Part shown: positions 19,950-39,070 of the stretch, one piece after another
Layout: each line of letters begins with the position of its first letter
Position numbering within the stretch: position 1 is the stretch's first letter
Assembly (NCBI GenBank): GCA_029262235.1
Contig: JAJCZU010000006.1
Coordinates: 10,934 to 74,933, forward strand
DNA length: 64,000 nucleotides
From: Candidatus Eiseniibacteriota bacterium
GTDB lineage: Bacteria; Orphanbacterota; Orphanbacteria; Orphanbacterales; Orphanbacteraceae
Direction of reading: 5' to 3'
Notes under the pieces: model-generated
Told to the model about the DNA's origin: nothing
The model's database searches: none
Seen by the model: the letters and a program-made list of their open reading frames with translations, nothing else
Position numbers and translations under genes: made by a program

Positions 19950-19978
19950 GACATCCTCCGTGCCCTCCTGCGGAGATT

Positions 19979-22024: not shown

Positions 22025-22053
22025 TTGACAACCCAAATGGCCCGTGGGATATT
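22025..22053 (+). promoter_or_regulatory. Sigma-70-like promoter candidate upstream of the giant gene
   Basis: TTGACA (22025-22030), 17-nt spacer, GATATT (22048-22053), in a 550-bp AT-richer intergenic region; implies a leader of about 300 nt. Confidence 0.4.
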
Positions 22054-22357
22054 GGCCGCGATTTTTTTCTGGAAAAATCGTGCCTGTTCCCACACCGGGA
22101 AGGCGAGAAGGAACGCGTTGAAAACAAAGTAGTTAGAAGGGTGTAAGGGTCTCTTTTCCGGCTCGCAGAGAGCAGCCGGAAGAGCGTGCCCATTACTGTA
22201 TTTTGGCTTAAATGAAGAAACTGCAATCACATAGAAGTCTCAAGGAGGACACGGAGTGGAGAACGACTCGTGGTTACAAAGCGTTATTCCGCTTTTATCT
22301 TTCCGAAGAAGAAAACCTCGCGGGATGACCATATCCCCGCAAAAGGAGGGCTCGAGT

Positions 22358-25300
22358 ATGAGTAGTCGTAGGAAGGGACGACTCAAAACACTCTCCCTGT
22401 TCGCGCTGCTTCTGACTGGAATGCTGTTCGCCCCTCAGGCGGATGCGCTTCCTGAAGTCGGGAGCCTTACGATCAGGGATGTGACGTACGATTCTGGCGC
22501 TGACAGGCTGGATATCGTATTCGACCGTACTGTGTCGGCAGCTGCCGCCACGGACTTCCGTTTTAACGACGGAACCACCTATGCCGGCGGCGCCCCCGTA
22601 ATTTCGGGGCTGCTCGGTAACGTAGTCAGTTTGACGACGTTCTCGACAGCGCCGGTGCCAGGTACCACTACGGTCGCCATCAAGGATTCGCTTGCCGCGA
22701 TCACCGGGTTGGAGATTATTACGGGGAACGCGACGGCAACGCGCGACTTCTCGTTCCACCCGATCGTGACAGGCCCTGTGATCGCTTCGGCGCTCTACAC
22801 GGCTGGTGAATCGGATCTCGATCCTACGAACGACGTCATTACGGTAGAGTTCAATACCGGAGTGACGTTCGTACCGGCGGCTCACGACACCCTGTTCAGC
22901 ATGCCGCAGCTCAAGGGCACGCAGACAATCGGTGATGACGACGGTGACGAGTTCCTCACACTCATCTTCGGTGCTGACGAAACGACGGTCCTCGACTACG
23001 TGTCGACGGTCGGACTCGCGTCGGACATTCTTGCCGGAATGGGCATCCAGGATTCGAACACCGACGAGATGACCTCGCTCACCCGCGTTCGCGTGGGTTC
23101 GGGCAGTGGTGCATTTCCGCTGTACGCTCCCTGGTACGCTGATGCGGGTGGCGTAGGCGGCGGCAACGACCGCTTCTACTATGTGATGAGCGGAGATGTT
23201 TCGTTCAACACGCCCGGCATCGGGATCACCGGTATCACCACGTTCAGTGGCGCTGGTGTGGCCCCGACGTTCAGTGGTGAAGTCTGGTCGACTCCGAACC
23301 GCCGCACGGTCGTCGGTGTCCGGAACGCGCATAAGGACGGCAACTATCTGAGCGCTCCGGTGCTTGGAACTTCGACGCGTCCGACGCTCCCGGTTGATGC
23401 CGATCTCGTGAACGCAACGCTGACCACGGCGGCCGATTCGGCTGATTCGGGGCCGGCTGGCGTGCCGATCGGTTTCGGTCCCGCGATCATCGCCGCTTAC
23501 TGGGATGGCAACGCGGATCAGATCATTCTTTACTTCTCGGAAGGCTTCGGGACGAACCCGGTGGCCGCCGACTTCCAGATCAACGGCGATGTCGCAACAG
23601 GCATCGGCGCGGGCTGGACGCTGGCAACGGTTGCCGGACGTGAAGTTCGCCTGAATGCTCCGGCTGACACGACCTGGCTCGAAGGCGATGTGATCAACAT
23701 CGAAACGACGCCGGTCATGGTCGGCCTTTCGGGTTTCGTGCCCTCGTTCACCGGCGCGGCCGGTACCGTGGACAACGCGATTCCGATTCGCGACGCGACG
23801 CCGCCGTCGAGCAACCTCGCTCTGACGGACCTTCTCGAGCGGAATCCGCAGGATACGCTCTCGCACGGCTTCATCAGCCTGTACGAGAATCCGGATCTGG
23901 ATGTCTGCTATTACCTCATTCTCAGCAAGATCGGGGAAGAGGTTAACAACGGCGACTTCGACACTACGCTCAACGTATGTGGTTCGATTCCCTTCCCGAA
24001 TCCGCAGGGCGTTGACGGCGACACGGCGACGGTCATTATCGACATTACACCGGGTCTGAACGATGCCACCGGAACCGTGATCGCCCAGGGCGACCGCGTC
24101 TTCTTCGGTGTCGCTCCTGTCGACAAAGAAGGGAACATCGGACAGTCGTATCGGGTTCCCGGCTCTCTTGTAGCCGGCCCTGTTGCCTGTCCGCGTGACT
24201 TTATTACGATTGCCGACGACCTTCGTATCAGCCTCGGCGCTGACTCGATCGTCGTTACGGACAACAATATCTGGATCAACGGTCACGCCGACCCGGTGCC
24301 GGACACTCTCGTAGGGGATACGCTCGCTGTCGATCCGTTCGACATCGTCGTCGTCTACCAGGATGCCGCGCTCACGGACTCGATCGCGGCCGGTACTGCT
24401 ACGGACGTCGGATCCTTCGTGATCGGACTCCCGAGCGACGCGGGTGATGCCAACGACTGGATCTACCTGACGTCGCGTGACCAGTTCGGCAACCAGTGCC
24501 CGGGCTTCACGCAGATCCTGAATGATCAGACACCCCCCGCTATCACAAAGCATGGCGATCCGAAGAATCCGTGGGCGATTTACGGCCCCGGCGATTCGGT
24601 TTGCGTCTTTGTTGAGGGCGCGGATACGACCGCCGGCGTCGCGATCGATCAGATCTCGTCGCTCCTGAGCGGTACGGTCGAAATCCTGACGTTCCACATG
24701 CCCCAGGAAATCGTGGCTTCGGCCAGCTTCGTGGCATGGGGTTCGGATCAGACTGACAACGACGGCGACTGGATCTCGGGCGCCGTTGGCGACAGCGCGG
24801 TCTGTGGACCGGCGTATCGCCGTCCGGCCGACACGTGCCGTGTCGGAACGGAAGACTATGCTGAGCCGTATTGCGACGAGAACGGCAACGGGGCATTCGA
24901 CCTCGGTGAGTACTTCGTCGACTACAATGGCAACAAGGTGTTCGACGGCGGTGGCGACTTCAATCTCGACTACCTCGACGCACCGTACACGGGCGACACC
25001 ACCAACATCGGTGGCGAAGGCCCGACCATGCGTCAGGAACTCGCGATGTATAAGGCTTCGTTCGCGAACCTTGACGCCGCTCTAGCGAATCCGGAACCGG
25101 TTCAGTGGCTCATCTGCCGCGTCCGGCTCCTCGACAAGAACGAAAACGAGTCGATTCTTCTCGACACGATCACGTTCGATAATCTCGCTCCGGAACAGTC
25201 GCAGTTCTCGCGCCTCGCGCGTCGTGACTCGTCTCAGTCCGGTGCGGGCAGCGGTAACCTGCTTCCGGATATCGGTGGCACGGCCAACTGCTACACCGTC

Positions 25301-28300
25301 GGTAACTTCGTCGACTTCGACGTCACGACCTACAGTGACTCGCACGACGTCGATTACGTTCTCCTTCAGATCAACACGGGTGGAGGCTGGGGTGACCTCA
25401 ACTTCGACCCGAACGGTGATTTGAATGCGGACGGTCAGCCGGGTAAAGCCGGTATCGATGATGACTTCGATGGCTGGGCGGACACGCTCGACGTCCAGGT
25501 TCACAACGCCATGCAGAACAGCCTTGCGGCTGATGCTGCTGACACGGATTCGACGCCGGCCGCCGGTGACGGGATCTGGGCGCTGAACGACGGAATCGAT
25601 AACGACAATAATGGCGTGATCGATGACGCGACGGACACGACGTACGCTGCCAACTTCATGGACGATGACGACGAAGACGGGATGCTCGACGGTACGACCG
25701 TTTCGACTCTCGACGCTGTCATCGGTGGTGGCTTCGGCCCCGGTGTCAACATGTTCCCGCAGTACCTGCACGTTGCCGGTATTGCCGCGACGGACACCAG
25801 CCTCAATGTTCCGGGTGACGGCTTCAGCGATGAAACCGCCCTTCTCTTCCCGGACATCGGCACGCCGATTCCGCTCACGGGCACGGACGAAGTGTTCGGC
25901 TGGGCGGCGCTGAACGGGTTCAACCTGAACATGCGCATGATCCAGCATCACTACAACATCCCGAACGAAACGCAGTTCAGTCTGCGCGCCGTTCCTTACG
26001 ACACGCGTGGCGGCCGCATAGGCCCGATGTCCAAAGCCGGTGGCGTCTTCGATGACGACATTGCGGCGAACCGGACCGGGAACAGCGACCCGACGAAGGC
26101 GATTCAGATCTGTCTGATCGTCGACACCACGGGTGTTGCCTGCGCGATCGATGTCGCTGCATTCGGTGAGAACACGGGCGCCGACAGTGCGGCCGCTGCG
26201 AACATCGACTACACCGCATGGGATTCGGAAGATTCGACGTACACGTCGCCGGCCGCACCGCTGAGCTACACGCTCACGGCTGCGGGTTCGGGCGCGGAAA
26301 TCGACTCGGTCGTCTTCTACGCGATGATGTGGAATGTCGATCCGGTCGATCCGGACACGTGGCTCGGTACGTGGACGCGCGTCGGTGCTGATTCCGACGG
26401 CATTCCGTACAACACGGACTGGACGGCTCCGATCGTCACGAACAAGCCGTGTGACAAAACGCTTCGTTACTACTTCTACTGCCAGGCCTTCGGCGCGTCC
26501 GGTCTCTTCGAAGAGGCCCTCGCGGATTCCGATACGGCGCTTGCAGAACTCGTAGTCGAGGTCGTGGACCATGTGTTCCCGATCACGAACATCACGAGCG
26601 TGGGTAACGATTACGACCTGACCAACGGTGCGACGGTTCCTGCCGATTCTGCGATCCACATTCGGATCGAAGGTACGGCGGATCTCGACGACCGCGACGG
26701 TCTGGCCGGCTTCAGTGACATTACGAGCATTGAATTCCAGCAGCGTCGTACGAACAACGGCAACAACAGCGCCGGACCGTGGTACACCATCGGTTCGATC
26801 GCGACGCCGTTTGATTCGATGCCGCCGGTTGACGTTGTCTGGCGTACCGATACGCTGACCGCACGGGACTACGATGTCCGCGCGATCGGTATCGACTGCG
26901 AAGGCAACTCGAATATCAAGTTCACGCAGGTCGTGCATGTCTCCATTGACACGCTCGGTCTTCGCGCATACATCGAGCCCCAGGTCTTCGAATCATCAGA
27001 TTCGATCACGCTTACGGCTCAGGTCTTCATTCACGACGAGTCGATTGACAATGTCGACTTCCAGGTATGGCCGGACTCGAATGAGAACTGCCTCCCGGAT
27101 GAAAACATCTCGTGGGTGTCGATCTACAACGACGACAACGACGATTCGTCGAGCGCCGATCCGGGTGGTGATGTCACCCTCCGTGTCGGTAGCGGAACGC
27201 TGTACGAAGTCAGCCAGCTCACGCCGGGTGACAAGTACGTCGACTTCGATGCGGATCACGGTTACATCGACTACGACGGTGACGGCTACTCGCCGATCGA
27301 CCCGGTCGTATGGGATGACAACAGCGACGGCTTCTACGATGAGTCCGATGGTGACACCACCGTGATCGGCCAGGTCGTGTCGACGGGGACGCCTCCGGCG
27401 ATCACGTCGTTCGACGCGGACGAATTCTACGCCGACTACAACACGAACGGTGACCTCGACGACGATGACTGGATCTTCAAAGAAGGTCTCGGCGGCTTCG
27501 AAGCCGGTTCGGATGAGCATCATACGTGGCAGGGCGGCTGGAACGTTGCGGACCTTTCGGGTTCGTGGTTGATCCGGTCGGTCGCGACGGATGAGCTCGG
27601 TAATGTCGACACCGACTCCAATACGGCGATTCCGTACATCTGCTGCGGTCTCGACGTCGATGCGCCGGCCGCTCAGGTCTGCAAAATCGCGATGGGTCTC
27701 GGTGGCTTCTCCTGGTACGACGGCATGCCGGTCGACTCGGTAGTTTGCGGTGACAACGAATGGGTCAAGCTCTGGGCTTGCCTGAACGACTCCGCCGACT
27801 ACGCCGATCTCGACTACATCCGGTTCGAGTACTCAGTTGATAACGTGAACTGGACCGACCTCGACGTGAACGACGACAACGACTTCTATGTCGATATCGA
27901 CGACACGCTCGGGTTCTCGCTCGGCGATGCCATCGTTCGCGATGACTACAGCGCCGACACCACGTTCACGGTGGACGCTTCCGACGTTCTGCTTCGCAAC
28001 GGGATTGCGGGCGACATCAGCGACATCTACGGATATCGCATGTTCCCGCTCTCCGACGAAGACGGCGCCGGTGGTGGTGATGAAGACGGTGACGGCAATG
28101 CGGACGAGGATGACTTCGACGAAGAAGACAGCCGCGATCCGTACTGCGTCTACTTCAATATTCGCGACCTGACGATGAACGACGGTCTTTTCCGCACCTC
28201 GACGCGCGTTTACTTCCGCGCCGTGGCCGTGGACGAGAACGGAAACGAAGACACGGATCCCACGATCACGCAGTTCGTGATTCAGGAAAACGTGGATCCG

Positions 28301-31300
28301 GAAACGGACATCGTCTGGGCAACGGACGAAAACGGTGACACGCTCGACGTCTACCCGGCCACGCAGGATGGTGACGGCGGCGATGCGCTCTACCTGATCA
28401 ACCAGCTGAATCTCCACGTTACTGTGGAAGACTCCAGCACGGTCGATTCGGTGTACGTCTGGTACCGTTGGAATCCGAAGGCCTACGAAGGTCTCAACAA
28501 CCTCAACAATCCGTGGCAGCGCGCCGCGGTTGTGGATGTTGTCTATCCGTTCAATCTCGATTGGGACATCAGCGGTCTTACCGATGGTTGCTATCAGTTC
28601 GCCGTGATTGCTCGCGACGAAACGTGCAACGAATCGGCTCCGCGTCTCAATCCCTACGAATTCACGAAGCTTTCGGTCCTGGCCGAAATCGAGTCCGCGC
28701 TCCGTCCGCTCGACTGGACGAAGAACGGCAATCTCGATCATCACAGCTCCGTGACGCTCGATACGGTTCAGGTCGGTGCTGAACTCTGGATCCGCGCGGA
28801 ACTTTCCGCGTCGGCCACGGCAGCGGACGCCGCGAATGCTGAAGTGTACTTCTGGTACGCCGACCGCGTTCTTGGTGAAGAGCTGACGGTTCAGACCTTC
28901 TACCCGTATATCTCGAGTGATGTTGCTGCTTCCGACAGCGGTTACAGCATCTTCGGTGACGAGGACAACTGGTGGTGTGACGTTCAGGTGCACGTGGATA
29001 CGGGCACGGCAGACGGCATCGCCACTTACTACACGAACGACGATTTCGAAGCTCTCGCGGCGCCGACGAAGTTTGACTTCACGGTCCGTGGCGGCTCGAA
29101 AATCGAGTTTGGTGCACAGCTCGCGTCGACGGACGTGGCCTACGTCAGCTACAACTACACTGGGTGGCAGCTGATCGCGGACTCACCGGATGACGACGTG
29201 GACGAAAACGGTTACTTCACGAGCGCCTGGGATCCGGCCGATCCGGTACCGGCACCTGAGAACAAGGGCCTGACGTGCGCCTACGACATGATCGCTCAGG
29301 TTCAGTACGACTTCGGTGGCGATGACAACTGTCTCGCCGAAACGCCGTGGTCCGAGAACAAGATCGTGCTGCTCCAGGAAATCGACGGACCGGAAGTCAC
29401 GCTTCACGGCTTCTTCTGGGACGAAGATTCTCCGTTCACGGAGTACAACTGGTCGGGTAACCCCATGCGCCAGTCGAACGGCTCGCATCGCAAGACGAAG
29501 CTCTGCGGTATCGAGTACGACGCGTTCGTGATTGTGGACTCGGTCGAAGCCGACAGCGTCAAGCTGGCGTTCGACTCGGGTACGCAGTACGACCTGACGA
29601 ACTACGTCACGGGTGACACCATCACGCTGACGATCACGATGAACGAACAGGACTTCCTGTGGTTCACGAATCCGGCGATCTTCCCGGATTCGATCGAGAA
29701 CGTACATCTTCTCTGGGACACCTCGGGTGACACGCAGAAGATCACCATGTACGACGACGGCGCGCACAACGACGGTGCAGCTGACGACGGCTGGTGGGGT
29801 ACGCAGGTCGACGTCATCGTGGGCAGCTCGCTCCGTGACTACAACTACCAGTTCGATATTGACGGCTCGGGCGACGAAGACGGCGTCTTCAACGATCCGC
29901 GCGTCAACGGCAGCGACGTTCAGGTTCCGGCCGACTTCTGGCACCGGAACTTCACGACGGAGCTGGGCGAAGGCACGCACACCGCGGTGGCGAGCGCCTG
30001 GGGGAACTTCGGTGTCCTCGGCACGAACACCACGAGCGCGCAGGGTCCGATCGTCTTCACGATCGACTGCACGCCGATGACGGTGGAAAGCCTGAATATC
30101 GTTCAGGATTGCGACTCCGACGACGAGTTCCAGTTCGTCGCGATCATTCGCGACGCGGGTGAGCTCATCACCGATATCTTTGAAGTAGACGAAGTCCGTT
30201 TCCAGTACGCGACCGACGTTCATAAAGACCGTTGGATCGATCTGGAAGACCTCGACTACTTCGATCGCGAAACCGGCTGGGTATGGGAAGGCAACTGGCC
30301 TTCGAGCGCTCTGCCGGCCAGCGATGGGATCGATAACAACGGCAACGGCATCACCGACGAACCGGAAGAAGAAGACTACGAATTCTGCATCCGCGTCGTG
30401 GTAGCCGATTGTGGCTGGGCCGTCACGGTCTTCCCGACTGTTCCGGAAGACGTAACGGTTCGTATCGATCGCAGTGCTCCGACGATCACGATGACCTCGC
30501 CGGCTCAGGGCGCTACGGTCACGTACGGTGAAGACTTCACCGTCTGTGCCCAGCCCGACGTGACCGGTCAGGAAATCGATTACTACGTGTTCTACTTCTC
30601 GGATCAGTCCGGGAACTGGATCCCGATCGACCCGACTCCGCAGGACGACGGTGATGATCCGTGGGTGCCCGCCGATGGTGACAACGAGGTCTGCGTGACC
30701 TTCGACACCGACTGGCTCGGCAACCAGGAAGATCAGTACGTGCAGTTCCTCGCAGTCGCCGTTGATAACGGCTGCAACCGTTCGGATTCGACGCAGACCA
30801 CGCCGATCGTGGCGGCTGTGAACGATACGATCGGGCCGGCGGCCTGCATCATTTCGATCGACCTTGATTGCGACAACGAAATCTCGGTCGCCGACCCGAA
30901 TCTCCGGATTCAGGGTGATGAAGTCACCGTTGTCGGTAAAGTCCTGAGCGACGCAGACCGTGTTTCGGTTGTGGAGTTCTGGCTCAACGACGGTACGACG
31001 AATCATCTCGTCGGCTTCGAGAACGACCTCAGCGGTAATCCGGCGGCTCTTTCGTTCACGTTCAACGCGAACGATTACATCGCCAGCGGTACGACTGCTG
31101 AAGGATCGATCTGGTTCCTTGCCCGCGACCTCGACGGCAACCCGGACCCGACACCTCTCATGGTGCCGGTGACATGGGACCGCGTGGATCCGAGCGTGAA
31201 CTACACCGCAGTGAACTTCGTAGACGGCACGGAAGACTATGCCGACGATGACATCGTCGACAACACGTCGCTCGCGCTGAAAGCGGATCCGTTCACGGGG

Positions 31301-34300
31301 CTCCTGACCTTCCGGGTCACGACCGCCGATGCGGATGTTAAATACATGACTCTCCAGGCCCGTCCGGACTCCGCATACTGGGGTCTCCTCGGTGACTGGG
31401 AAGACATCGACGACCTCGACTTCGAACCGCAGTTCGACGTGGGTGGCGAGTACCTCTGGTGGCTCGAAACCACGCCGGGTGACATCGATCTTGATGACGG
31501 CCCGTATGAATGGCGTGTCCTCGCAACGGACTTTGCCTGCAATACGAACGCGCTCGATCCGCTCGTGGTCAAAGCGACTCTCGACACGGAAGATCCGAAC
31601 TGCCTCTTCGTCGGCGACGACGCGGTGGCTGACGGTGACATCGGTCAGGTTGCTGCCGGTGACGATGTGGAACTGACCTGGTTCGGTCAGGACAACAACG
31701 GTGCACGCGGACGTACTGACATCGAGCATGTCACCTTCTGGTACTTCGGTGCCGACGGCGACACGGTGATCATCGGTACGGACGATACGCCGACGCCGGA
31801 TCAGCTCGACACGCCTGGAACGAAGTGGACGGCCAACGTGACCTGGACGACGCCGGACTGGCTCGTACGTGACACGGAATGGACGGTCTACGCCTGGGCA
31901 TACGATACGCCCTGGAATCGGACGACCTGTTCGTTCGATATCAATATTGAAGATCGTCACGCTCCGCAGGGCACGCGCCTCGTGGGTGTTTCGCCGGACG
32001 AAGACTGCAATATCTTCCCGCGCGAAATCAGTGAGACGGTTCTGAATGAGCAGACCATCACGTGGACGAACGTCATTGAACTCGAAGCCGAAACGGCGGT
32101 CGGGGACAGCGGCATCGCACGCGTCTGGTTCTATGCGATTAACGAAGCCGGTGACACTCTTGTCATCGACGTTGATGAAAACCCGAGTTCCACGACCGAC
32201 GGTGCACAGGATGTCTGGCGCTGGTACGGCGAGTGGGACTGCGAAGAACTCGATCATGCAACGGACACGCCGAAATGGGCCGAAGGCTCGTACACGGTGT
32301 ACGCGTGGGCAGTTGACGAAGAGGACAACGTCGAAGTACCGACCATGTGGTACAACTTCGTCCTCGACAAGACTGCTCCGAAGGCCGTCGCGACGATCAA
32401 CGGTTCGACGGATGACACCACCATCGAACGAGGCGACTCGGTCCATGTCGGCGCCAACGTTGACGGTAACGAAGACGTTACGGTCACGTGGTACATGCGC
32501 TCGCACTACGACTCGACGCCGGGTGAAGATGCGTGGCTGGCCATGACGGTTCCGAACGGATTCAACTTCATCTATGAAACGACGAATCCGGATGACAACC
32601 GTCCGTACAGCTTCGACTGGGCGACCTGGCTGCAGGACGCTCCGCTCGAAGTCGGAAACTGCTACGACATCGTCCCGGTGGCTGAAGACCTCGTGTGCAA
32701 CGCGGGTGACATTCAGTCTGCCTGGGCGGCTGATTGTGGCATTACCTTCTGTGTCGAGGACAACATGGCGCCCTGCGCCACGATTACGTACCTCCGTCGC
32801 GAACTGTGCGACGAAGAGGGGAACATCGAGCAGCCCGATCGCGAACGAGTCCGAGGATTCGCGAGCTTGACGGCCAAGGTGCTCCGTGGCGATACGGACA
32901 CGCAGTGGGTCGCCTTCCAGTACAGCATCGACAACGGTGCGACCTGGGTACTTGCGGACAATGATGTGGATTCCCTGGGTGACTTCTCTTGGACACTCAA
33001 CGATTGGAATTCGGATCTGCTCCCTGAAGGTGACATCCTCTGGCGTGCCGTTGCGTATGACGACGCTGGCAACTTTGATGAAAGTGCTGCCTGCTCGCCG
33101 ACGCGTACGCTCGTGATCGATCGTACGGGCCCGACCATTGAAGTGGTTACGCCGAACGACTTCGATCAGTGCCCGTTCGTTCGCAATGAGGACGGTGACC
33201 CCGTGGTCCCGCTCATCATTACGAGCTCGGACGATCAGCAGCAGGCGCAGTTCGGTCTGGTCTTTGAATGGAAGAAGACGATCTCCGACACGACGCGCTG
33301 GTCGACATCGGACATTGAGGACTTCCTCTACGACGAAAAGTCGGGCTACTACACGACGACTTGGAACGTGGACGAAAACGAAAGCGGCAAGTACGACTTC
33401 CGCGTCACGGCTCTCGACAGTGCGTGCAACTGGACTACAGTCATGATGGCGACGGAAGTCGTGATCGACGTGGACGCACCGCTAGTCAACATCACCCGCT
33501 TCGAGATCGATCGGAACGTGGGTGGTGAGCAGACAACGGTCGTCTCCCAGATCAGCCAGGGGCTCGTGGTGGATGTTTCGGCCGGCGAACCGGTCCGCAT
33601 CTATGCTACGGCAACCGATGATGAACAGGACATCCCCGGCCCGCTCGATCAGGGTGTCGATAGTGTCTACTTCGAAGTTACGGCTTCGCTCGGCGGCACC
33701 ATCTACCACCTCGATCTGGGTGAGCAGGATGAAAGCGACAGCAGCCACTTCGTGGCACACTGGAACACGTCCGCGCTCGACCCGGGTGATTACTTCATCC
33801 GTGCCCGCGCCGTGGACCACTGCGGAAACGAATCGTACTCCGACTGGAGTGAGGTCAATGTGATCGACGATTCGCCGCCGCGTGCCGCTGTGATCTGCTG
33901 GGAGCCGGATGTCATTAACGACATCAACGCGACGACGAAGGTCAAGGTTTACGCCACCGAGTGGTGCAACCAGCGTGTTGATGAAGTGATGTTCCAGTAC
34001 CAGCGCGTCGACGCCTCGCAGGGCGACGGTGGAACGGACGACGGAGATGGGGCCGCCGGTAAGGCTGCCGCTCCGTGGGTCACGTTCGGCACGCAGACGA
34101 ACGTCGCTACCGACGATTCGCTCTGGTGCGCTGAGCTCGAGATCGGCCGCGGTACGATCTGGAACATCGGTGATGAAATGCTTCTCCGCGCGGTAGCGAT
34201 CACGCTCCGTCCGGAAATCACTTCGAAGACGGATGCCTCCGAAGCTTCGGCTTCGAACAAGGGAGACATTCTCTACTTCGATGCGAATCCCCCGTACACG

Positions 34301-37069
34301 CAGGTTCGCGTGGTGGCGGATCGCTTCAATCGCGATCTCGAGTCGGTGCATCCGGAAGGCGGCGCCTGGCTCAGCTATAACGACGTGAAAGTCGTACCGA
34401 ACGACGGTCTCGGAACGAACCTCTGGGTCGAAATCGCTATCAATGACTCGATCGTTGATAACGCCGACTGGGGTACGATCGCGAAGCCCTGGGTTCTCGT
34501 AACGGCCGATCGGGTTGTCAATCCGGCCGGCCCTGACGGAACAGAGCCCAACTTCGAAGAAATCGTCGAAATGGATCCGATGAACGAAGGTGGCGGACTC
34601 AGCCCGTACAACTGGGGTGGGTTCAGCTACAAGGGTCTGATCGATACGATCGGATGCGGCGGTTACATCTACGTGAACGCGGCGGTAGTGGAAGACAGCG
34701 GCTCGGCGACCAGCCCGGCACGCGTCGACATTATCCGTCACGTGATTGCTGTCCATGAAGTCACGAACGGCGCGGGTACCCGTGGTCCGGTCGCGATTCC
34801 TGGCGACGACAATCTCACGGTAAGCATTCCTTCGGGCAACGGTGTCTACGGTGGTCTCATGCTGACGCAGGCGAACACGCCGAGCGCGTCGCGCGATGAG
34901 AACGAGCAGGCATATCGTCTCCGCCCGTTCGGACAGGCGTACAGCCTGAAGATGCTGGATTGTGCCGGCGGCTTCACGAACGACTGCCCCGAGTTCAATG
35001 ACGGCTATGATGCCCTCATTACCTGGAGCTACGACGAAGAAGACCTGACGGTGGTCGACGCCTTCGGTGACTCCGTCACGATCAACGAACTGACCGACAT
35101 CTACGTCGCCCACTGGGACGGAGATGAGTGGGAGGGCGGATTCGACGCGGATCTGCGGGTTGATACGGAGAACAACACCGTAACGGTCAACATCGGTAGC
35201 TTCTGCTACAACGATGACTCATTCCAGGATGACGCGGTCTGGAGCCTGGTTGGCGTTACCGCGCCGACGCAGGTTGCCTTCTCACCGTGGTGTGACGGAT
35301 ACACGAACGAAAGTCCGGTATTCACGGCCACGCTGACGGACCATGTCGGGAATGGATACATCGAGCGGATGGAGATCTTCATCGACAACGAACTGGTTGC
35401 TTCAAACGGCGATCCCTTCGATCAGCTGGAAGACGACAACTGCTTCACGAACGACGATGACTATATCTACGTCCTCGGTAACGGAAGCATCTGTGCTGAA
35501 GTAGTTACGTATCAAGAAGATCAGATGACGATCCAGTACACGCATTCGACGAATGCCGCGGATGTTCTGGACGGCGGGCCTCACACGCTCCGCATCCAGT
35601 ACACGTCGTCCGATGATGAGGACAATACGTACAACATCATCCAGGAGTTCTCGGTCGATAACACGCCGGTGGCCATGGAGTGGAGCGGAGGCTTCCTCGC
35701 TGGTCCGTGTGTTGGAACCGCAGACTGCTTCATCAGTGGTGATGAGGACGGATCGCACGAAGGAATCACGGTCAAGCTGACCGACCTGGAGTCCGGCGTT
35801 CATACGCAGGGCAACAACGTCACGGCGACCCTGAATATCGTGTTCGGCGCTCTGGCTGAACTCGTCGGGAACACCGCAAGCCTGGGTGTCCTCGGTAACT
35901 TCGTAACGGTGAACGGTGTTGCCGTTCTGCCGGTCGCAGAACTCGGTCTCAAGATGGACGTCTGGCTCGTCGACGACGAAGACGATCAGACCGACATCGA
36001 TGAGTTCTGGGAACGCGCTCTCATTCAGTCGGCTACCCCGGTCATGCTCACGTATGAACCGGAGATCTGCCCGTACTCGAATGAGGCGAACTGTGACGAT
36101 TCGGTACATTACGATCCCAGTGACGACCTCTATGTCACGCTTCCGCTCACGGTGAATCTGAAGCCGTACGACGGACGTGAAATCGAAGTCGTTCTCTATA
36201 GCTCGAAAGTGGATCACATCGGATTCGACTCCAACCTGATCGGTATCTTCGGTGATGCCCCCGAAGGTTGGAATGAAGATGACGATGAAGAATTCACGCG
36301 GTACATCTTTGGACCGTTCGATTGTGTCGGTAACGTCGGATCGCAGTACGCTGCGCGCCGATTCATCGTGGACAGCTCGGCTCCGGTCGTAACGTTCTCG
36401 ACGCCGAACCAGGTCAACCCGGGATCGGACCTTCCGATCTGGGCGACGATCGCGGACGGTACGGAATCCGCCAGCGGCGCGGGAGTGGACGAGTCCACGC
36501 TCGAGCTCACGCTGAACGGACCGAGTGGTGAATGCTTCTCGATCAACCCGGCGACGTACGTTGTTGACACCTCGGAGAAGGCTTCGAACGACAGCAACGC
36601 GGTCATCGAATCGATCGAGTGGGATGGTGAAATGGTTCACGCTGTGGTCTCCGGCCTCGAAGAGAAGGGGAATTACACCCTCACGCTCTCCGGTCGTGAC
36701 CGCACGGGGAACAGCTTCACCGCCACGCACAGCTTCGTGGTCGGCAGCTCGGTGCTGACGATTACGGACGCTGCGGTGTACCCGAACCCCGTCGATCCGT
36801 CTGATGGAGATGAAGCTTGCATTAACTTCCTCCTCGGCGGAACGCGCGATGCGCAGGTCCAGTACATGATCTACGACTTCGCGGGTGACCTCGTCTACGA
36901 GTCGCCGGTCGCTTCCATGGCACCTGGTCAGATCAGCCAGTGCTGGAACGGTCGGACGAACGGCGGGACGATGGTGGCCAACGGTGGTTACCTGGCCCGG
37001 ATTCTGGTGAACGACGGAGCCGGCACGAAAGCCGAAACCGTCAAGATCGCCATCCGGAAGGGAGACTAA
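22358..37069 (+). CDS. Giant (~4,900 aa) highly acidic repetitive cell-surface protein with signal peptide and type IX secretion C-terminal sorting domain (SprB-like adhesin analogue)
   Basis: RBS AAGGAGG then ATG 22358 (MSSRRKGRLKTLSLFALLLTGMLFAPQADA); one uninterrupted 14.7-kb ORF; very Asp/Thr/Gly-rich with recurrent Ca-binding-type loops (DENGNGAFDLGEYF, DYNGNKVFDGGGD, DYDGDGYSPIDP, DDDGDE); last ~90 aa (VYPNP.DPSDGDEACI.F.L.G..DAQV.Y.IYDFAGDLVY.......G.....W.G....G..VANGGYLARI....G.....TVKIAIRK) is a Por_Secre_tail-type domain. Confidence 0.85.
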   Translation: MSSRRKGRLKTLSLFALLLTGMLFAPQADALPEVGSLTIRDVTYDSGADRLDIVFDRTVSAAAATDFRFNDGTTYAGGAPVISGLLGNVVSLTTFSTAPVPGTTTVAIKDSLAAITGLEIITGNATATRDFSFHPIVTGPVIASALYTAGESDLDPTNDVITVEFNTGVTFVPAAHDTLFSMPQLKGTQTIGDDDGDEFLTLIFGADETTVLDYVSTVGLASDILAGMGIQDSNTDEMTSLTRVRVGSGSGAFPLYAPWYADAGGVGGGNDRFYYVMSGDVSFNTPGIGITGITTFSGAGVAPTFSGEVWSTPNRRTVVGVRNAHKDGNYLSAPVLGTSTRPTLPVDADLVNATLTTAADSADSGPAGVPIGFGPAIIAAYWDGNADQIILYFSEGFGTNPVAADFQINGDVATGIGAGWTLATVAGREVRLNAPADTTWLEGDVINIETTPVMVGLSGFVPSFTGAAGTVDNAIPIRDATPPSSNLALTDLLERNPQDTLSHGFISLYENPDLDVCYYLILSKIGEEVNNGDFDTTLNVCGSIPFPNPQGVDGDTATVIIDITPGLNDATGTVIAQGDRVFFGVAPVDKEGNIGQSYRVPGSLVAGPVACPRDFITIADDLRISLGADSIVVTDNNIWINGHADPVPDTLVGDTLAVDPFDIVVVYQDAALTDSIAAGTATDVGSFVIGLPSDAGDANDWIYLTSRDQFGNQCPGFTQILNDQTPPAITKHGDPKNPWAIYGPGDSVCVFVEGADTTAGVAIDQISSLLSGTVEILTFHMPQEIVASASFVAWGSDQTDNDGDWISGAVGDSAVCGPAYRRPADTCRVGTEDYAEPYCDENGNGAFDLGEYFVDYNGNKVFDGGGDFNLDYLDAPYTGDTTNIGGEGPTMRQELAMYKASFANLDAALANPEPVQWLICRVRLLDKNENESILLDTITFDNLAPEQSQFSRLARRDSSQSGAGSGNLLPDIGGTANCYTVGNFVDFDVTTYSDSHDVDYVLLQINTGGGWGDLNFDPNGDLNADGQPGKAGIDDDFDGWADTLDVQVHNAMQNSLAADAADTDSTPAAGDGIWALNDGIDNDNNGVIDDATDTTYAANFMDDDDEDGMLDGTTVSTLDAVIGGGFGPGVNMFPQYLHVAGIAATDTSLNVPGDGFSDETALLFPDIGTPIPLTGTDEVFGWAALNGFNLNMRMIQHHYNIPNETQFSLRAVPYDTRGGRIGPMSKAGGVFDDDIAANRTGNSDPTKAIQICLIVDTTGVACAIDVAAFGENTGADSAAAANIDYTAWDSEDSTYTSPAAPLSYTLTAAGSGAEIDSVVFYAMMWNVDPVDPDTWLGTWTRVGADSDGIPYNTDWTAPIVTNKPCDKTLRYYFYCQAFGASGLFEEALADSDTALAELVVEVVDHVFPITNITSVGNDYDLTNGATVPADSAIHIRIEGTADLDDRDGLAGFSDITSIEFQQRRTNNGNNSAGPWYTIGSIATPFDSMPPVDVVWRTDTLTARDYDVRAIGIDCEGNSNIKFTQVVHVSIDTLGLRAYIEPQVFESSDSITLTAQVFIHDESIDNVDFQVWPDSNENCLPDENISWVSIYNDDNDDSSSADPGGDVTLRVGSGTLYEVSQLTPGDKYVDFDADHGYIDYDGDGYSPIDPVVWDDNSDGFYDESDGDTTVIGQVVSTGTPPAITSFDADEFYADYNTNGDLDDDDWIFKEGLGGFEAGSDEHHTWQGGWNVADLSGSWLIRSVATDELGNVDTDSNTAIPYICCGLDVDAPAAQVCKIAMGLGGFSWYDGMPVDSVVCGDNEWVKLWACLNDSADYADLDYIRFEYSVDNVNWTDLDVNDDNDFYVDIDDTLGFSLGDAIVRDDYSADTTFTVDASDVLLRNGIAGDISDIYGYRMFPLSDEDGAGGGDEDGDGNADEDDFDEEDSRDPYCVYFNIRDLTMNDGLFRTSTRVYFRAVAVDENGNEDTDPTITQFVIQENVDPETDIVWATDENGDTLDVYPATQDGDGGDALYLINQLNLHVTVEDSSTVDSVYVWYRWNPKAYEGLNNLNNPWQRAAVVDVVYPFNLDWDISGLTDGCYQFAVIARDETCNESAPRLNPYEFTKLSVLAEIESALRPLDWTKNGNLDHHSSVTLDTVQVGAELWIRAELSASATAADAANAEVYFWYADRVLGEELTVQTFYPYISSDVAASDSGYSIFGDEDNWWCDVQVHVDTGTADGIATYYTNDDFEALAAPTKFDFTVRGGSKIEFGAQLASTDVAYVSYNYTGWQLIADSPDDDVDENGYFTSAWDPADPVPAPENKGLTCAYDMIAQVQYDFGGDDNCLAETPWSENKIVLLQEIDGPEVTLHGFFWDEDSPFTEYNWSGNPMRQSNGSHRKTKLCGIEYDAFVIVDSVEADSVKLAFDSGTQYDLTNYVTGDTITLTITMNEQDFLWFTNPAIFPDSIENVHLLWDTSGDTQKITMYDDGAHNDGAADDGWWGTQVDVIVGSSLRDYNYQFDIDGSGDEDGVFNDPRVNGSDVQVPADFWHRNFTTELGEGTHTAVASAWGNFGVLGTNTTSAQGPIVFTIDCTPMTVESLNIVQDCDSDDEFQFVAIIRDAGELITDIFEVDEVRFQYATDVHKDRWIDLEDLDYFDRETGWVWEGNWPSSALPASDGIDNNGNGITDEPEEEDYEFCIRVVVADCGWAVTVFPTVPEDVTVRIDRSAPTITMTSPAQGATVTYGEDFTVCAQPDVTGQEIDYYVFYFSDQSGNWIPIDPTPQDDGDDPWVPADGDNEVCVTFDTDWLGNQEDQYVQFLAVAVDNGCNRSDSTQTTPIVAAVNDTIGPAACIISIDLDCDNEISVADPNLRIQGDEVTVVGKVLSDADRVSVVEFWLNDGTTNHLVGFENDLSGNPAALSFTFNANDYIASGTTAEGSIWFLARDLDGNPDPTPLMVPVTWDRVDPSVNYTAVNFVDGTEDYADDDIVDNTSLALKADPFTGLLTFRVTTADADVKYMTLQARPDSAYWGLLGDWEDIDDLDFEPQFDVGGEYLWWLETTPGDIDLDDGPYEWRVLATDFACNTNALDPLVVKATLDTEDPNCLFVGDDAVADGDIGQVAAGDDVELTWFGQDNNGARGRTDIEHVTFWYFGADGDTVIIGTDDTPTPDQLDTPGTKWTANVTWTTPDWLVRDTEWTVYAWAYDTPWNRTTCSFDINIEDRHAPQGTRLVGVSPDEDCNIFPREISETVLNEQTITWTNVIELEAETAVGDSGIARVWFYAINEAGDTLVIDVDENPSSTTDGAQDVWRWYGEWDCEELDHATDTPKWAEGSYTVYAWAVDEEDNVEVPTMWYNFVLDKTAPKAVATINGSTDDTTIERGDSVHVGANVDGNEDVTVTWYMRSHYDSTPGEDAWLAMTVPNGFNFIYETTNPDDNRPYSFDWATWLQDAPLEVGNCYDIVPVAEDLVCNAGDIQSAWAADCGITFCVEDNMAPCATITYLRRELCDEEGNIEQPDRERVRGFASLTAKVLRGDTDTQWVAFQYSIDNGATWVLADNDVDSLGDFSWTLNDWNSDLLPEGDILWRAVAYDDAGNFDESAACSPTRTLVIDRTGPTIEVVTPNDFDQCPFVRNEDGDPVVPLIITSSDDQQQAQFGLVFEWKKTISDTTRWSTSDIEDFLYDEKSGYYTTTWNVDENESGKYDFRVTALDSACNWTTVMMATEVVIDVDAPLVNITRFEIDRNVGGEQTTVVSQISQGLVVDVSAGEPVRIYATATDDEQDIPGPLDQGVDSVYFEVTASLGGTIYHLDLGEQDESDSSHFVAHWNTSALDPGDYFIRARAVDHCGNESYSDWSEVNVIDDSPPRAAVICWEPDVINDINATTKVKVYATEWCNQRVDEVMFQYQRVDASQGDGGTDDGDGAAGKAAAPWVTFGTQTNVATDDSLWCAELEIGRGTIWNIGDEMLLRAVAITLRPEITSKTDASEASASNKGDILYFDANPPYTQVRVVADRFNRDLESVHPEGGAWLSYNDVKVVPNDGLGTNLWVEIAINDSIVDNADWGTIAKPWVLVTADRVVNPAGPDGTEPNFEEIVEMDPMNEGGGLSPYNWGGFSYKGLIDTIGCGGYIYVNAAVVEDSGSATSPARVDIIRHVIAVHEVTNGAGTRGPVAIPGDDNLTVSIPSGNGVYGGLMLTQANTPSASRDENEQAYRLRPFGQAYSLKMLDCAGGFTNDCPEFNDGYDALITWSYDEEDLTVVDAFGDSVTINELTDIYVAHWDGDEWEGGFDADLRVDTENNTVTVNIGSFCYNDDSFQDDAVWSLVGVTAPTQVAFSPWCDGYTNESPVFTATLTDHVGNGYIERMEIFIDNELVASNGDPFDQLEDDNCFTNDDDYIYVLGNGSICAEVVTYQEDQMTIQYTHSTNAADVLDGGPHTLRIQYTSSDDEDNTYNIIQEFSVDNTPVAMEWSGGFLAGPCVGTADCFISGDEDGSHEGITVKLTDLESGVHTQGNNVTATLNIVFGALAELVGNTASLGVLGNFVTVNGVAVLPVAELGLKMDVWLVDDEDDQTDIDEFWERALIQSATPVMLTYEPEICPYSNEANCDDSVHYDPSDDLYVTLPLTVNLKPYDGREIEVVLYSSKVDHIGFDSNLIGIFGDAPEGWNEDDDEEFTRYIFGPFDCVGNVGSQYAARRFIVDSSAPVVTFSTPNQVNPGSDLPIWATIADGTESASGAGVDESTLELTLNGPSGECFSINPATYVVDTSEKASNDSNAVIESIEWDGEMVHAVVSGLEEKGNYTLTLSGRDRTGNSFTATHSFVVGSSVLTITDAAVYPNPVDPSDGDEACINFLLGGTRDAQVQYMIYDFAGDLVYESPVASMAPGQISQCWNGRTNGGTMVANGGYLARILVNDGAGTKAETVKIAIRKGD

Positions 37070-37313
37070 TCAATAAGGCTTCGGGGGGGAGCTTGACTCC
37101 CCCCCAAGCCTCTTCATATTCGAGGGCCCGGAATTCACCGTGGCTCTCGAACATGAGGAGGACCTTGATTCTGAGGTTTTCTGATTGGTCAAAGAGGGTG
37201 AGATGAAACAGCGAGTTGATAATAAAAGTCAGAGTGAAATCAGAGAGAGAGTCAAACAGTCGGATGAGTCATTGAAGTACTCATTTGATCCCTATGAGAG
37301 GAGGACCGAGAGA

Positions 37314-39005
37314 ATGTGCATTCGCAGTAAGGCGGTTACCGCGCTTGCGGCCGTCGGGTCGATTGCTCTTCTCGTTGCGTTCACGGTTCCGGCGTTCGCC
37401 GAAGAGAACGGTAGCGACAACCACGCGGCTGCGTTCAGTCGTGTGGGCGTTGGTGCCCGCGCTCTCGGTATGGGTGGCGCCTATACTGCCGTAGCGGATG
37501 ATGCAAACGCAACGATGTGGAACCCGGCCGGCCTTGCTCGTGTCGACAACCTGAACTTCACGTTCATGTACACGGGCGGCTACGATTTTGACCGTAACCA
37601 TAACTACTTCGGTTACGCGCAGTCTTTCAACATGGCATCAGTCGGTATCGGCTGGACGAATGCCGGTTGGGATGACTTCGTGCGTGCAGGCCAGGGTAGT
37701 GGTGACGGTGGAAGCTTCGATCTCACGGACAACCTGATTCACCTCGGTGTCGCACGTCAGTACGGCCCGGTCGGTTTCGGTGTCGCCGGTAAGATCTTCG
37801 ACCAGGAGATCGACGGCAAATCGGAATCCGGTGGTGGTGTGGACGTCGGTACGTTCTTCATGCCCAGCCCGTACATGACCTTCGGTGTCACCGTACAGGA
37901 TGTCTGGAGTGAAATCGGTGAAGATCAGGTTCCGTTCAACCTTCGTGGCGGTGTCGCACTCAAGCCGATGGGCGATCTTACGCTCGCGGCGGACATCGAA
38001 CACGGTGAAGACGACGAAACGGTCTTCCATCTCGGTGCCGAAGCATGGTTCGAATACCATCCTGGCTACCAGCTCGCGCTTCGCGCGGGTGCGAGCGACA
38101 TCGCTCGTGACGACCAGGACAATGGTTACTCCCTCGGTCTCGGGCTCCGCGTTCCGCGGTTCTTCGGTATCGGGCTGGACTATGCCTTCGTGAACGAAAT
38201 GGAAGATTTCATGGGCGAGAACCATCGTATCTCCCTCAATCTTGCCTTTGGCGAGCGTGAGCGTGATCGCGATGGCGACGGCATTCCGGATTACGACGAC
38301 GAATGCCCGAACTCGGCCGAAGACTTTGATGGGTTCATGGATGATGACGGTTGCCCGGATCTCGACAACGACGGCGACGGCATTGTGGATGAACTCGACT
38401 CGTGCCCGGATGAAGCCGAAGACTTCGACGGCATCGATGATTCGGACGGTTGCCCGGAACTGGATGACAGGGACGGCGACGGCCTGATGGACGCTGACGA
38501 TCAGTGCCCGGATGAGCCCGAAGACTTCGATGGATTTGAAGACGGCGACGGCTGCCCGGATGATGACAACGATGGCGACGGCATCCCGGATGCGCAGGAT
38601 CGTTGCATGAACAATGCAGAGACCTACAACGGTTATATGGACGACGACGGTTGCCCGGACATCGCTCCGCGCGAAAACTTGAACGGCGTCCACTTCGAGT
38701 TCAATTCTGCCAAGCTGAAGCTCGGCTCGCAGCAGATCCTCGACGAACTCGTCCGCGCCCTCAAGGCGAACCCGGACGTGAACGTGCAGATCGAAGGCCA
38801 CACCGATGATGTCGGTTCGGCTTCGTACAACAAGGATCTCTCGCAGCGCCGCGCGAAAGCCGTGGTGGACTACATCGTAACCAAGGGGATCAACGCTTCG
38901 CGTCTCTCCCCGCAGGGTTACGGTGAAGAGCGTCCGATCGCGTCGAACAAGACGCCGGAAGGACGACTGGAGAATCGGCGGGTTGAAGTAATCCGCATGA
39001 ACTAA
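37314..39005 (+). CDS. Outer-membrane protein: PorV/FadL-like N-terminal beta-barrel region + six TSP3 calcium-binding repeats + C-terminal OmpA-family peptidoglycan-binding domain
   Basis: RBS GAGGAGGA then ATG 37314; signal peptide MCIRSKAVTALAAVGSIALLVAFTVPAFA; N-terminal motif RVGVGARALGMGGAYTAVADDANATMWNPAGLA as in PorV/UPF0164-type barrels (pattern matched from memory, so uncertain); repeats DRDGDGIPDYDDECP / DNDGDGIVDELDSCP etc. at nt 38260-38665; OmpA-C domain NGVHFEFNSAKL...QIEGHTDDVGSASYNKDLSQRRAKAV...GYGEERPIA.N.T.EGR..NRRVE. Confidence 0.75.
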   Translation: MCIRSKAVTALAAVGSIALLVAFTVPAFAEENGSDNHAAAFSRVGVGARALGMGGAYTAVADDANATMWNPAGLARVDNLNFTFMYTGGYDFDRNHNYFGYAQSFNMASVGIGWTNAGWDDFVRAGQGSGDGGSFDLTDNLIHLGVARQYGPVGFGVAGKIFDQEIDGKSESGGGVDVGTFFMPSPYMTFGVTVQDVWSEIGEDQVPFNLRGGVALKPMGDLTLAADIEHGEDDETVFHLGAEAWFEYHPGYQLALRAGASDIARDDQDNGYSLGLGLRVPRFFGIGLDYAFVNEMEDFMGENHRISLNLAFGERERDRDGDGIPDYDDECPNSAEDFDGFMDDDGCPDLDNDGDGIVDELDSCPDEAEDFDGIDDSDGCPELDDRDGDGLMDADDQCPDEPEDFDGFEDGDGCPDDDNDGDGIPDAQDRCMNNAETYNGYMDDDGCPDIAPRENLNGVHFEFNSAKLKLGSQQILDELVRALKANPDVNVQIEGHTDDVGSASYNKDLSQRRAKAVVDYIVTKGINASRLSPQGYGEERPIASNKTPEGRLENRRVEVIRMN

Positions 39006-39039
39006 GCCGGTTCAAGGACTCTCATAGGGAACTCTGCTA

Positions 39040-39070
39040 GGGGGACGAGTCTCTGCTCGTCCCCCTTTTT
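39040..39070 (+). terminator. Rho-independent terminator
   Basis: GGGGGACGAG-TCTCTG-CTCGTCCCCC hairpin followed by TTTTT. Confidence 0.8.

Follow-up and report, generated by a model that had tools for sequence, protein, structure and literature searches.

A giant acidic secreted protein and the adjacent PorV/PorQ-family barrel with a TSP3–OmpA tail: a probable cell-wall anchoring pair in Eisenbacteria

Introduction

Large surface proteins of Bacteroidota can be partnered with an outer-membrane barrel of their own. For type B cargo of the T9SS (type IX secretion system), exemplified by the PG1035-PorP-PorE complex, the cognate barrel is proposed to hold the cargo, and Flavobacterium johnsoniae has five operons of type B cargo with an SprF-like barrel and a PorE-like protein that are proposed to form static, wall-anchored complexes (PMC9143113, PMC12618676). 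PorE (PG1058) is T9SS-associated and binds peptidoglycan through an OmpA_C-like domain (PMC7192894, PMC12773672). Here we analyze a pair of adjacent genes, one for a giant secreted protein and one for a fusion of a PorV/PorQ-family barrel to TSP3 repeats and an OmpA domain, in a 64,000-nt stretch of DNA (the window) from a Candidatus Eiseniibacteriota bacterium (assembly GCA_029262235.1, contig JAJCZU010000006.1, positions 10,934 to 74,933). A first-pass annotation, made from the sequence alone, had proposed that the pair is a dedicated anchoring module.

Two other systems bear on this pair. In the attachment complex of Porphyromonas gingivalis, PorQ anchors PorZ and PorV anchors PorU, the C-terminal domains (CTDs) of the anchored proteins being left uncleaved; a proposed task of PorQ is to pick up PorZ from the translocon (PMC10947112, PMC12365241). 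In Myxococcus xanthus TraB, a signal peptide and an N-terminal outer-membrane barrel precede TSP3 repeats and an OmpA domain; the protein pairs with the surface receptor TraA and is its proposed peptidoglycan anchor (PMC12045341). The T9SS itself is described as restricted to Bacteroidota (PMC12365241).

Results

A PorV/PorQ-family barrel fused to TSP3 repeats and an OmpA domain

The 563-aa fusion, whose signal peptide was recognized by inspection, passed the NCBIfam PorV/PorQ family model NF033709 (95.4 bits for the whole protein and 98 bits for the barrel alone; cut-off 90), its barrel aligning to positions 3–326 of the 326 in the model. An AlphaFold2 (AF2) model of the barrel had 14 long strands and short N-terminal helices (pLDDT 84, pTM 0.79). 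Foldseek matched this model to FadL at 1e-9 and to F. johnsoniae PorV (6h3i_F) at 4e-8, and the latter also gave the best TM-score, 0.62/0.59. The first-pass annotation had called this N-terminal region PorV/FadL-like and had set scoring against a PorV-type model beforehand as a test; both the family model and the predicted fold bear the call out.

Models for individual components scored far below their cut-offs: PorV (NF033710) at 24.7 bits (cut-off 250), PorQ (NF033711) at 40.2 (cut-off 220) and PorV2 (NF052325) at 51.2 (cut-off 325). By these scores the predicted barrel is a member of the PorV/PorQ family, yet an ortholog of no named component. The PorP/SprF models (TIGR03519 and PF11751) gave no match to the fusion at E ≤ 10 (NCBIfam) or E ≤ 1 (Pfam), and the Pfam PorV model PF19572 gave none to the barrel, for which the only Pfam matches were weak ones to Toluene_X and UPF0164. 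Since neither PF19572 nor PF11751 matched, the family assignment rests on NCBIfam and the predicted fold.

Between barrel and OmpA domain lie four 34-aa units, seen by Tandem Repeats Finder as a 102-nt period in the coding sequence, that hold eight TSP3-type calcium-binding motifs and eight Cys; the earlier count of six TSP3 repeats is replaced by this one. Pfam TSP3 (PF02412) scored 19.4 bits, below its cut-off of 25, but the eight motifs with their eight Cys and the homology of aa 318–559 to the TSP3–OmpA structure 5wtl (E 9e-50) support the assignment despite that shortfall. The OmpA domain annotated downstream of the repeats was confirmed at 92.9 bits (cut-off 27.2). It keeps the peptidoglycan-contact motifs GHTD...N..LS..RA..V and NRRVE, and many OmpA and Pal homologues of it were found in the PDB. 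Two models for other proteins with an OmpA-type domain matched this end of the fusion: PorE (NF052230) at 97 bits over the OmpA part only (cut-off 600), and TraB (NF033763) at 136 bits over the TSP3–OmpA part, model positions 318–495 (cut-off 700). Because the number of strands is even, standard barrel topology would put the C-terminus of the barrel, and hence the TSP3 and OmpA regions, in the periplasm. The TSP3 region may then be read as a periplasmic spacer.

A GGAGG site lies 8 nt upstream of the fusion's ATG, which is also the start adopted by gene callers. From the stop codon of the giant gene to this ATG there are 244 nt. The gap of 116 bp given previously stems from a mechanical open reading frame (ORF) that begins at an upstream TTG (37185).

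The giant secreted protein and its C-terminal domain

The giant gene is a single ORF whose length was reproduced by independent gene calls in identical public contigs. Its predicted product has a mass of 531 kDa and a pI of 4.05, with 12.2% Asp and 1.3% Lys. The N-terminus, MSSRRKGRLKTLSLFALLLTGMLFAPQADA, was judged a Sec signal peptide by inspection only; this region can be aligned to the N-terminus of an orthologous giant (locus L099, described below). We counted 11 DxDxDG-like motifs, against 1.6 ± 1.3 expected from composition shuffles. The picture of an acidic protein of about 4,900 aa with a predicted Sec signal peptide and Asp-rich, calcium-type loops stands, whereas the description of it as repetitive is not supported: self-BLASTP found no internal repeats at E ≤ 1e-3, and Tandem Repeats Finder found none in the gene. 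Apart from the C-terminal FlgD_ig domain, Pfam gave weak Ig-like matches only, and no PDB chain related to the giant by sequence was found. Strong acidity was confined to the extracytoplasmic proteins of the locus. A halophile-type acidic proteome was considered as the cause of the giant's acidity and ruled out, since the cytoplasmic proteins of the window are non-acidic.

At the C-terminus, Pfam FlgD_ig (PF13860) matched aa 4833–4879 with 32.6 bits, above the gathering cut-off of 27. The type A CTD model TIGR04183 reached 14.2 bits, short of its cut-off of 23, and the type B model TIGR04131 had no match at E ≤ 1 in the NCBIfam search with the giant's last 200 aa. In local NCBIfam matches the tail scored best against the CTD region of PorU, with 42.5 bits, and that of PorZ, with 30.2 bits. 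Alignment revealed the motifs PNP, W.G..G..V..G.Y and K.A, common to the giant, a PorU-like protein and a 630-aa cargo protein, the latter two also encoded in the window. The AF2 model of the last ∼105 aa is a beta-sandwich with pLDDT 90–96, preceded by an Ig-like domain. Its top PDB fold match was P. gingivalis PorU (6za2, E 9e-10), which is weak support because Ig-like folds are generic. We interpret the domain as a T9SS-type CTD of a diverged, non-canonical subtype. Of the earlier label, canonical T9SS CTD, the FlgD_ig match upholds the T9SS character, while the failure of the type A model removes the word canonical.

The pair is conserved as other neighbors change

With the barrel by itself as query we found 1,392 relatives. 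Of the 120 best clusters among them, about half carry an OmpA domain, at lengths of 470–563 aa; the named OmpA-bearing relatives come nearly all from Candidatus Eisenbacteria and carry the NCBI label ‘PorV/PorQ family protein’. The fusion lay directly downstream of a giant CTD protein, of 4,300–5,500 aa, in 14 of 14 evaluable distinct loci (33–78% barrel identity). These comprise 11 protein-cluster look-ups (33–100% barrel identity) and three genome loci (L013, L014 and L029). In the 11 clusters the fusion starts 93–269 nt downstream of a FlgD_ig-ended ORF on the same strand; where complete, these ORFs encode 4,378–5,509 aa, and one runs into a contig end after 2,641 aa. Genes beyond the pair vary, and include MazG, a pilin gene with a riboflavin operon, GroES/EL, a two-component system and a helicase. 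Thus synteny in relatives, which the first-pass annotation had asked about, was found throughout the evaluable loci.

The Eisenbacteria giants are collinear orthologs, with 27–54% identity over >2,800 aa. HMMER, run in full with the C-terminal 300 aa of the giant as query, found at least 18 representative clusters, of 4,300–5,900 aa, in which the match lies at the very C-terminus; a word-indexed search with the same query returned 3 fragments only. The genome scan used a single peptide pattern and gave at least 80 loci, with paralogs within each genome under-sampled.

Among the loci examined, none had an OmpA fusion next to an unrelated gene, in agreement with the cargo-specific proposal. The sole unclear case is L012, where 345 bp (1–345) of lower-GC, ApbE-like sequence precede the fusion at a contig end, in place of the giant CTD that one would expect. 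As a candidate exception to the pairing L012 was set aside as unevaluable, because of the contig end and because two members of its clade (P0008 and P0009) do carry the giant gene; the locus probably reflects an assembly that is chimeric or broken at that gene.

A probably cargo-dedicated partner

In one relative, the Eisenbacteria metagenome-assembled genome (MAG) SBS.BIN.67, the fusion (L014) is accompanied by an unfused PorV paralog of 350 aa (L072). In L072 (2142–14805) the gene order is porU-like, RNase R, porV, TPR and PEGA, with the PorU-like assignment (2786–6607) resting on tblastn. Locus L041 (6265–16590), from a second MAG, has the same order from RNase R to PEGA, and no porU-like gene was seen in that locus; the PorV paralogs are 340–350 aa. 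This is probably a housekeeping attachment set. Because a relative thus has a separate, unfused PorV paralog near a porU-like gene, the fusion, judged from its sequence and gene context, looks like a partner dedicated to its cargo.

The closest unfused barrels (300–330 aa, 34–39% identity) are from Zixibacteria and Ignavibacteria. They too directly follow giant ORFs, whose C-terminal 200–300 aa are homologous to those of the giant studied here. Over the fetched loci, a homologous CTD ends the gene just upstream of a PorV-like barrel in 45 of 81 barrel–upstream ORF pairs. Barrel similarity and adjacent-CTD similarity correlated across 990 locus pairs (Spearman 0.64, Pearson 0.80), values that are inflated by shared phylogeny. 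A comparison with paralogs is more telling. The pair at Zixibacteria locus L016 scores 0.28 (barrel) and 0.26 (CTD) against the pair of this window, compared to 0.10–0.15 (barrel) and 0.10–0.16 (CTD) against the paralogous pairs of its own genome.

PorV-like barrels with other C-terminal extensions were found as well, namely TPR (L042, L086, L054, L032 and L036) and fn3 (L073), in Ignavibacteriales, Elusimicrobia and other MAGs; several of these follow CTD-bearing proteins. Given these periplasmic TPR and fn3 extensions, the OmpA tail is one of several add-ons to such barrels.

Sorting components in the window

The window's PorU-like protein gave Pfam scores of 232.8 bits for Peptidase_C25, 53.1 for Propeptide_C25 and 37.5 for its own FlgD_ig. 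Its best match was the T9SS sortase PorU model NF033707, at 290.9 bits, with the cut-off of 420 not reached. The 630-aa protein, an ordinary cargo that passes the type A model, provides an in-genome contrast to the giant's diverged CTD. These predicted products show that T9SS-type sorting machinery is present in the host, noteworthy in an Eisenbacteria-like genome because the literature holds the T9SS to be exclusive to Bacteroidota. The fusion is the only PorV-family gene of the window and lies 25 kb from the porU-like gene.

Signals around and within the pair

The pair had been described as bracketed by an AT-rich promoter region and a strong terminator. Both signals were seen. GC content falls from ∼62% for the window to the values of the upstream spacer in Table 1, within which there is a promoter-like site at 22025–22053 (TTGACA-17-GATATT, with TG; a consensus match only). 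The intrinsic terminator ends in TTTTTCTGTGT. What did not hold up is the implied single clean unit, as a GC-rich stem-loop (−31.3 kcal/mol, z = −5.0) stands between the two genes.

This stem-loop is a conserved feature. Hairpins of differing sequence occupy the same position in 12 of the 12 loci checked, from Eisenbacteria, Zixibacteria and Ignavibacteria (this window and L001, L003, L004, L006, L008, L013, L014, L029, L015, L016 and L018). They range from −26 to −43 kcal/mol (45-nt window), begin 2–15 nt past the giant stop, and are without a clear T-run. Such a hairpin could be a terminator lacking a T-run, a stabilizer of the mRNA 3' end, or an attenuator that sets the ratio of cargo to anchor. 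Transcription or processing may accordingly differ between the giant and fusion genes.

A second TSP3 protein upstream of the giant

Adjoining the giant gene upstream is a gene for a secreted 428-aa protein, 13.8% Asp, whose TSP3 repeats share 57–58% identity with those of the fusion. The protein lacks an OmpA domain, and its N-domain matched no Pfam or NCBIfam family. We considered whether it might be a diverged PorV barrel; this was ruled out by a negative hidden Markov model score and an hhalign probability of 19%. Further upstream are genes for a beta-helix protein and a DUF1844 protein, the true start of the latter being probably later than that of its mechanical ORF. Locus L099 repeats the order of beta-helix, DUF1844, homologue of the 428-aa protein (3702–5012, 44% identity), long spacer and giant N-terminus (33% identity, E 5e-12). 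Because L099 keeps the TSP3 gene upstream of the giant, the module may exceed two parts, with the 428-aa protein as a possible third member.

Other neighbors

Past the terminator, the helicase protein is apparently outside the module, since among the fetched loci only contigs of the same organism have it after the pair. Between the porU-like gene and the giant gene, and at the start of the window, are cell-wall turnover genes (148–1167 and 12778–18408: MltG, AnmK, a SpoIID-domain protein and a NagZ-like GH3 protein, plus a sodium:solute symporter). The window also encodes two sulfatase-domain proteins, one at 4696–7119 that is fused to a long TPR region and one at 44991–46769, and a clostripain-like peptidase at 57834–59000.

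Downstream of the pair in L004/L005, L008/L009, L093 and L094 we noted the riboflavin operon, nusB, a methyltransferase, and GT4 and TMEM260-like TPR glycosyltransferases. Glycosyltransferases in this position in Eisenbacteria might modify surface proteins.

Table 1. Features of the anchoring pair and its surroundings, in window coordinates
Feature	Position	Strand	Description and basis
PorU-like C25 peptidase	8518–12615	+	1,365 aa; own FlgD_ig CTD; Pfam
Secreted right-handed beta-helix protein	18951–19949	+	332 aa; Pfam Beta_helix 37.8 bits
DUF1844 protein	19889–20524	+	PF08899 67.3 bits, aa 106–178 of the mechanical ORF
Secreted acidic TSP3 protein	20521–21807	+	428 aa; ∼310-aa N-domain, then C-terminal TSP3 repeats
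Relatively AT-rich spacer upstream of giant gene	21808–22357		42–52% GC; promoter-like site inside
Giant secreted protein gene	22358–37069	+	Single ORF from ATG at 22358 to stop at 37069; 4,903 aa
Predicted Sec signal peptide of giant	22358–22447	+	30 aa, ends ...APQADA; sequence inspection only
Putative giant CTD, FlgD_ig / type-A-like T9SS	36749–37066	+	Beta-sandwich; Pfam FlgD_ig, motifs, AF2 model
GC-rich stem-loop between giant and fusion genes	37076–37111	+	Starts 7 nt past giant stop; without clear T-run
PorV/PorQ-family barrel–TSP3–OmpA fusion	37314–39005	+	563 aa, pI 4.05
Signal peptide of fusion	37314–37400	+	aa 1–29, ...VPAFA; sequence inspection
14-strand FadL/PorV-type outer-membrane barrel	37425–38249	+	aa 38–312; NF033709, AF2, Foldseek
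TSP3 region of fusion	38265–38654	+	aa 318–447; motif scan, Tandem Repeats Finder, PDB 5wtl match
OmpA C-terminal-like peptidoglycan-binding domain	38694–38978	+	aa 461–555; PF00691, motifs, PDB OmpA/Pal homologues
Intrinsic terminator	39039–39066	+	12-bp stem, 8 G-C pairs, then T-run
RNase H-like and superfamily 1 helicase protein	39086–42694	+	1,202 aa; 81 nt past fusion, beyond terminator
Ordinary cargo protein	51176–53068	+	630 aa; TIGR04183 33.5 bits (cut-off 23), FlgD_ig 39

Discussion

How the pair may work

We favor, with moderate confidence, the following reading. The giant acidic protein would leave the cytoplasm by Sec, and its C-terminal beta-sandwich would carry it across the outer membrane via a type IX-like translocon. 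The PorV/PorQ-family barrel encoded directly downstream would capture that CTD and, rather than handing the giant on for cleavage, retain it at the surface, as PorQ does for PorZ, PorV for PorU and SprF for SprB. At the periplasmic C-terminus of the barrel, a calcium-binding, disulfide-stapled TSP3 spacer would lead to the OmpA domain, which would bind peptidoglycan. The 531-kDa protein would thereby be fixed through the outer membrane to the wall by a static, load-bearing rivet.

This reading builds on observations, namely the domains identified, the fold predicted for the barrel, an adjacency that never varied in the evaluable loci, barrels and CTDs that co-vary, the unfused paralog of the relative, and the window's PorU-like gene and type A cargo. 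From them we infer passage through a T9SS, interaction of barrel and CTD, an uncleaved CTD, and peptidoglycan binding. Anchoring through a cargo-specific barrel held to the wall had been the first-pass interpretation, together with three findings that would speak against it: a barrel scoring with no PorV-, PorP- or FadL-type model, a pair not conserved together, and OmpA fusions next to genes for something other than cargo. None of the three turned up, which supports the interpretation; the mechanism itself is a proposal.

Several results weigh against this reading. The giant's CTD misses both the type A and the type B model, and the barrel misses all three models for named components. The correlation between barrels and CTDs owes part of its strength to phylogeny. 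Co-transcription of the giant and fusion genes is uncertain because a strong conserved hairpin separates them. The T9SS parts identified, the PorU-like sortase and CTD cargo, are those within the 64-kb window, and translocon and motor genes were not sought. The 428-aa TSP3 protein has no role in the proposed rivet. Finally, CTD-protein/barrel pairs occur in MAGs whose labels point to groups without a known T9SS, namely Margulisiibacteriota (L085), Elusimicrobia (L086) and Riflebacteria/Ozemobacteraceae (L035, L038, L039, L040 and L047), and also in ‘Clostridia’ MAGs (L036 and L048); a mechanism independent of the T9SS would fit these. Either the sorting module is far more widespread than thought or these MAG bins are mislabelled.

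Alternative explanations

The barrel could instead be a transient cognate shuttle, collecting the giant so that the PorU-like sortase cleaves the CTD, with covalent attachment to a lipopolysaccharide or release to follow; the OmpA domain would then position the barrel near the machinery. SprB secretion depends on SprF, there is a PorU-like C25 peptidase in the window, and the giant's CTD keeps the type-A-like motifs that accompany cleavage in Bacteroidota. PorV itself has been called a shuttle (PMC5562754). We still think a shuttle rather unlikely: a barrel pinned to peptidoglycan is unable to diffuse, the giant's CTD has diverged from the type A model that the window's ordinary cargo passes, and strict one-to-one pairing with co-varying CTDs resembles the pairs in which the CTD is retained. 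Lower still in our estimation is a housekeeping role, with the fusion as the host's general PorV/PorQ serving all CTD cargo or the attachment complex. Such a role would suit a protein that passes the PorV/PorQ family model and is alone in its family in the window. It is hard to square with the unfused PorV paralogs of related Eisenbacteria MAGs, which in L072 lie near a porU-like gene, with an adjacency to the giant that is invariant as other surroundings change, and with the 25 kb that separate the fusion from the porU-like gene.

The phylum labels listed above, and the treatment of the T9SS as a Bacteroidota-only system (PMC12365241), are the grounds for a pair that works without a type IX translocon. 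Here the CTD would dock in or on the barrel, the pair would be akin to a LapA-LapE-like retention module or an anchor in trans, and the likeness to T9SS components would reflect shared ancestry. But a FadL-type barrel of 14 strands is too narrow for the export of a 531-kDa protein, a PorU-like sortase with a like CTD is encoded in the window along with type A cargo, and the labels may reflect mis-binning; we give this explanation little credence, marginally less than the housekeeping one. The two genes might also have no functional link, the fusion being an ordinary membrane–wall tether of the OmpA/Pal kind that sits here through inherited synteny. OmpA–TSP3 tethers are common in the FCB group, and the strong intergenic hairpin makes separate promoters possible. 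This we regard as very improbable, given that the adjacency persists at 33% barrel identity while neighbors on the opposite side turn over, that unfused barrel relatives in other phyla likewise follow CTD proteins, and that barrel and CTD similarities co-vary.

Broader meaning

The significance of the pair is threefold. Fusion of a PorV/PorQ-family barrel to a peptidoglycan-binding domain is Rosetta-stone support for the static cargo-to-wall model, so far a proposal, that was put forward for cognate T9SS barrels such as PorP–PorE. It widens the cognate-barrel principle, until now one of type B/PorP pairs, to barrels of the PorV/PorQ family with type-A-like CTDs and to phyla other than Bacteroidota, in which the T9SS is usually said to be absent. 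And the conserved family of giants of 4,300–5,900 aa without known domains probably makes up a major surface structure in an uncultured phylum.

A wider scenario we offer tentatively, and think doubtful as a whole. One-to-one pairs of a CTD protein and a PorV/PorQ-like barrel would be old and widespread beyond Bacteroidota (Eisenbacteria, Zixibacteria, Ignavibacteria and KSB1, possibly Riflebacteria, Elusimicrobia and Margulisiibacteriota), and the general PorV shuttle of Bacteroidota would be a special case derived from them. In Eisenbacteria such a pair would have become a rivet of three layers, surface fibre, barrel and wall, for a length-conserved giant of ∼5,000 aa without detectable repeats, flanked by a second TSP3 protein and with a conserved stem-loop between the genes.

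Comparison with known systems

The nearest parallel is with the type B systems of PorP, SprF and PorE (SprB-SprF, Fjoh_3952-3951-3950 and PG1035-PorP-PorE). There, as here, a large surface protein has its own barrel gene next to it on the same strand, and the non-mobile cargo is proposed to be tied to the wall via an OmpA_C-like domain (PMC9143113, PMC12618676). The locus in the window departs from them in four respects: its barrel belongs to the PorV/PorQ family and has no PorP/SprF match, its putative CTD is FlgD_ig/type-A-like, its wall-binding domain is fused to the barrel instead of residing in a separate TPR/beta-propeller lipoprotein, and its host is outside Bacteroidota. PorE itself, unlike the fusion, has no barrel; it is a lipoprotein made up of TPR, beta-propeller and CRD domains.

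In the PorZ-PorQ and PorU-PorV pairs of the P. gingivalis attachment complex, a PorV/PorQ-family barrel permanently anchors a surface protein whose CTD is retained, as we propose here. Those barrels are without a peptidoglycan-binding extension, and their partners are components of the machinery, not a 4,903-aa protein. We know of no gene adjacency of PorQ or PorV to porZ.

The architecture of the fusion, barrel then TSP3 then OmpA, is that of TraB, whose model matched over the TSP3–OmpA part only. The giant differs from TraA in having a T9SS-type CTD where TraA is sorted by MYXO-CTERM, and TraAB mediates outer-membrane exchange, unlike the role proposed for this pair. In structure 5wtl, too, an OmpA domain comes after TSP3 repeats that hold Cys pairs within the repeat; unlike the fusion, the solved fragment includes no membrane region. 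Proteins of this OmpA kind carry small OmpA-type barrels and are not known to have 14-strand barrels of PorV/FadL type.

In the literature searched we found no description of a PorV-OmpA fusion or of a T9SS in Eisenbacteria or Zixibacteria. The first-pass remark that no described PorV-like domain tethered to peptidoglycan was known to it thus stands for the fusion as such. It does not extend to the idea, as wall-tied cargo barrels have already been proposed for the type B systems and TraB. The kind of scheme, a wall-bound barrel that serves one cargo, already has proposed examples in the separate proteins of Bacteroidota and in TraA-TraB of myxobacteria. New are the barrel family and its OmpA fusion, the phylum, the unfused pairs of CTD cargo and PorV-like barrel in many other phyla, and the TSP3 protein upstream of the giant. 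Taken together, the pair probably rivets the giant to the cell wall as a one-protein version of a known anchoring scheme.

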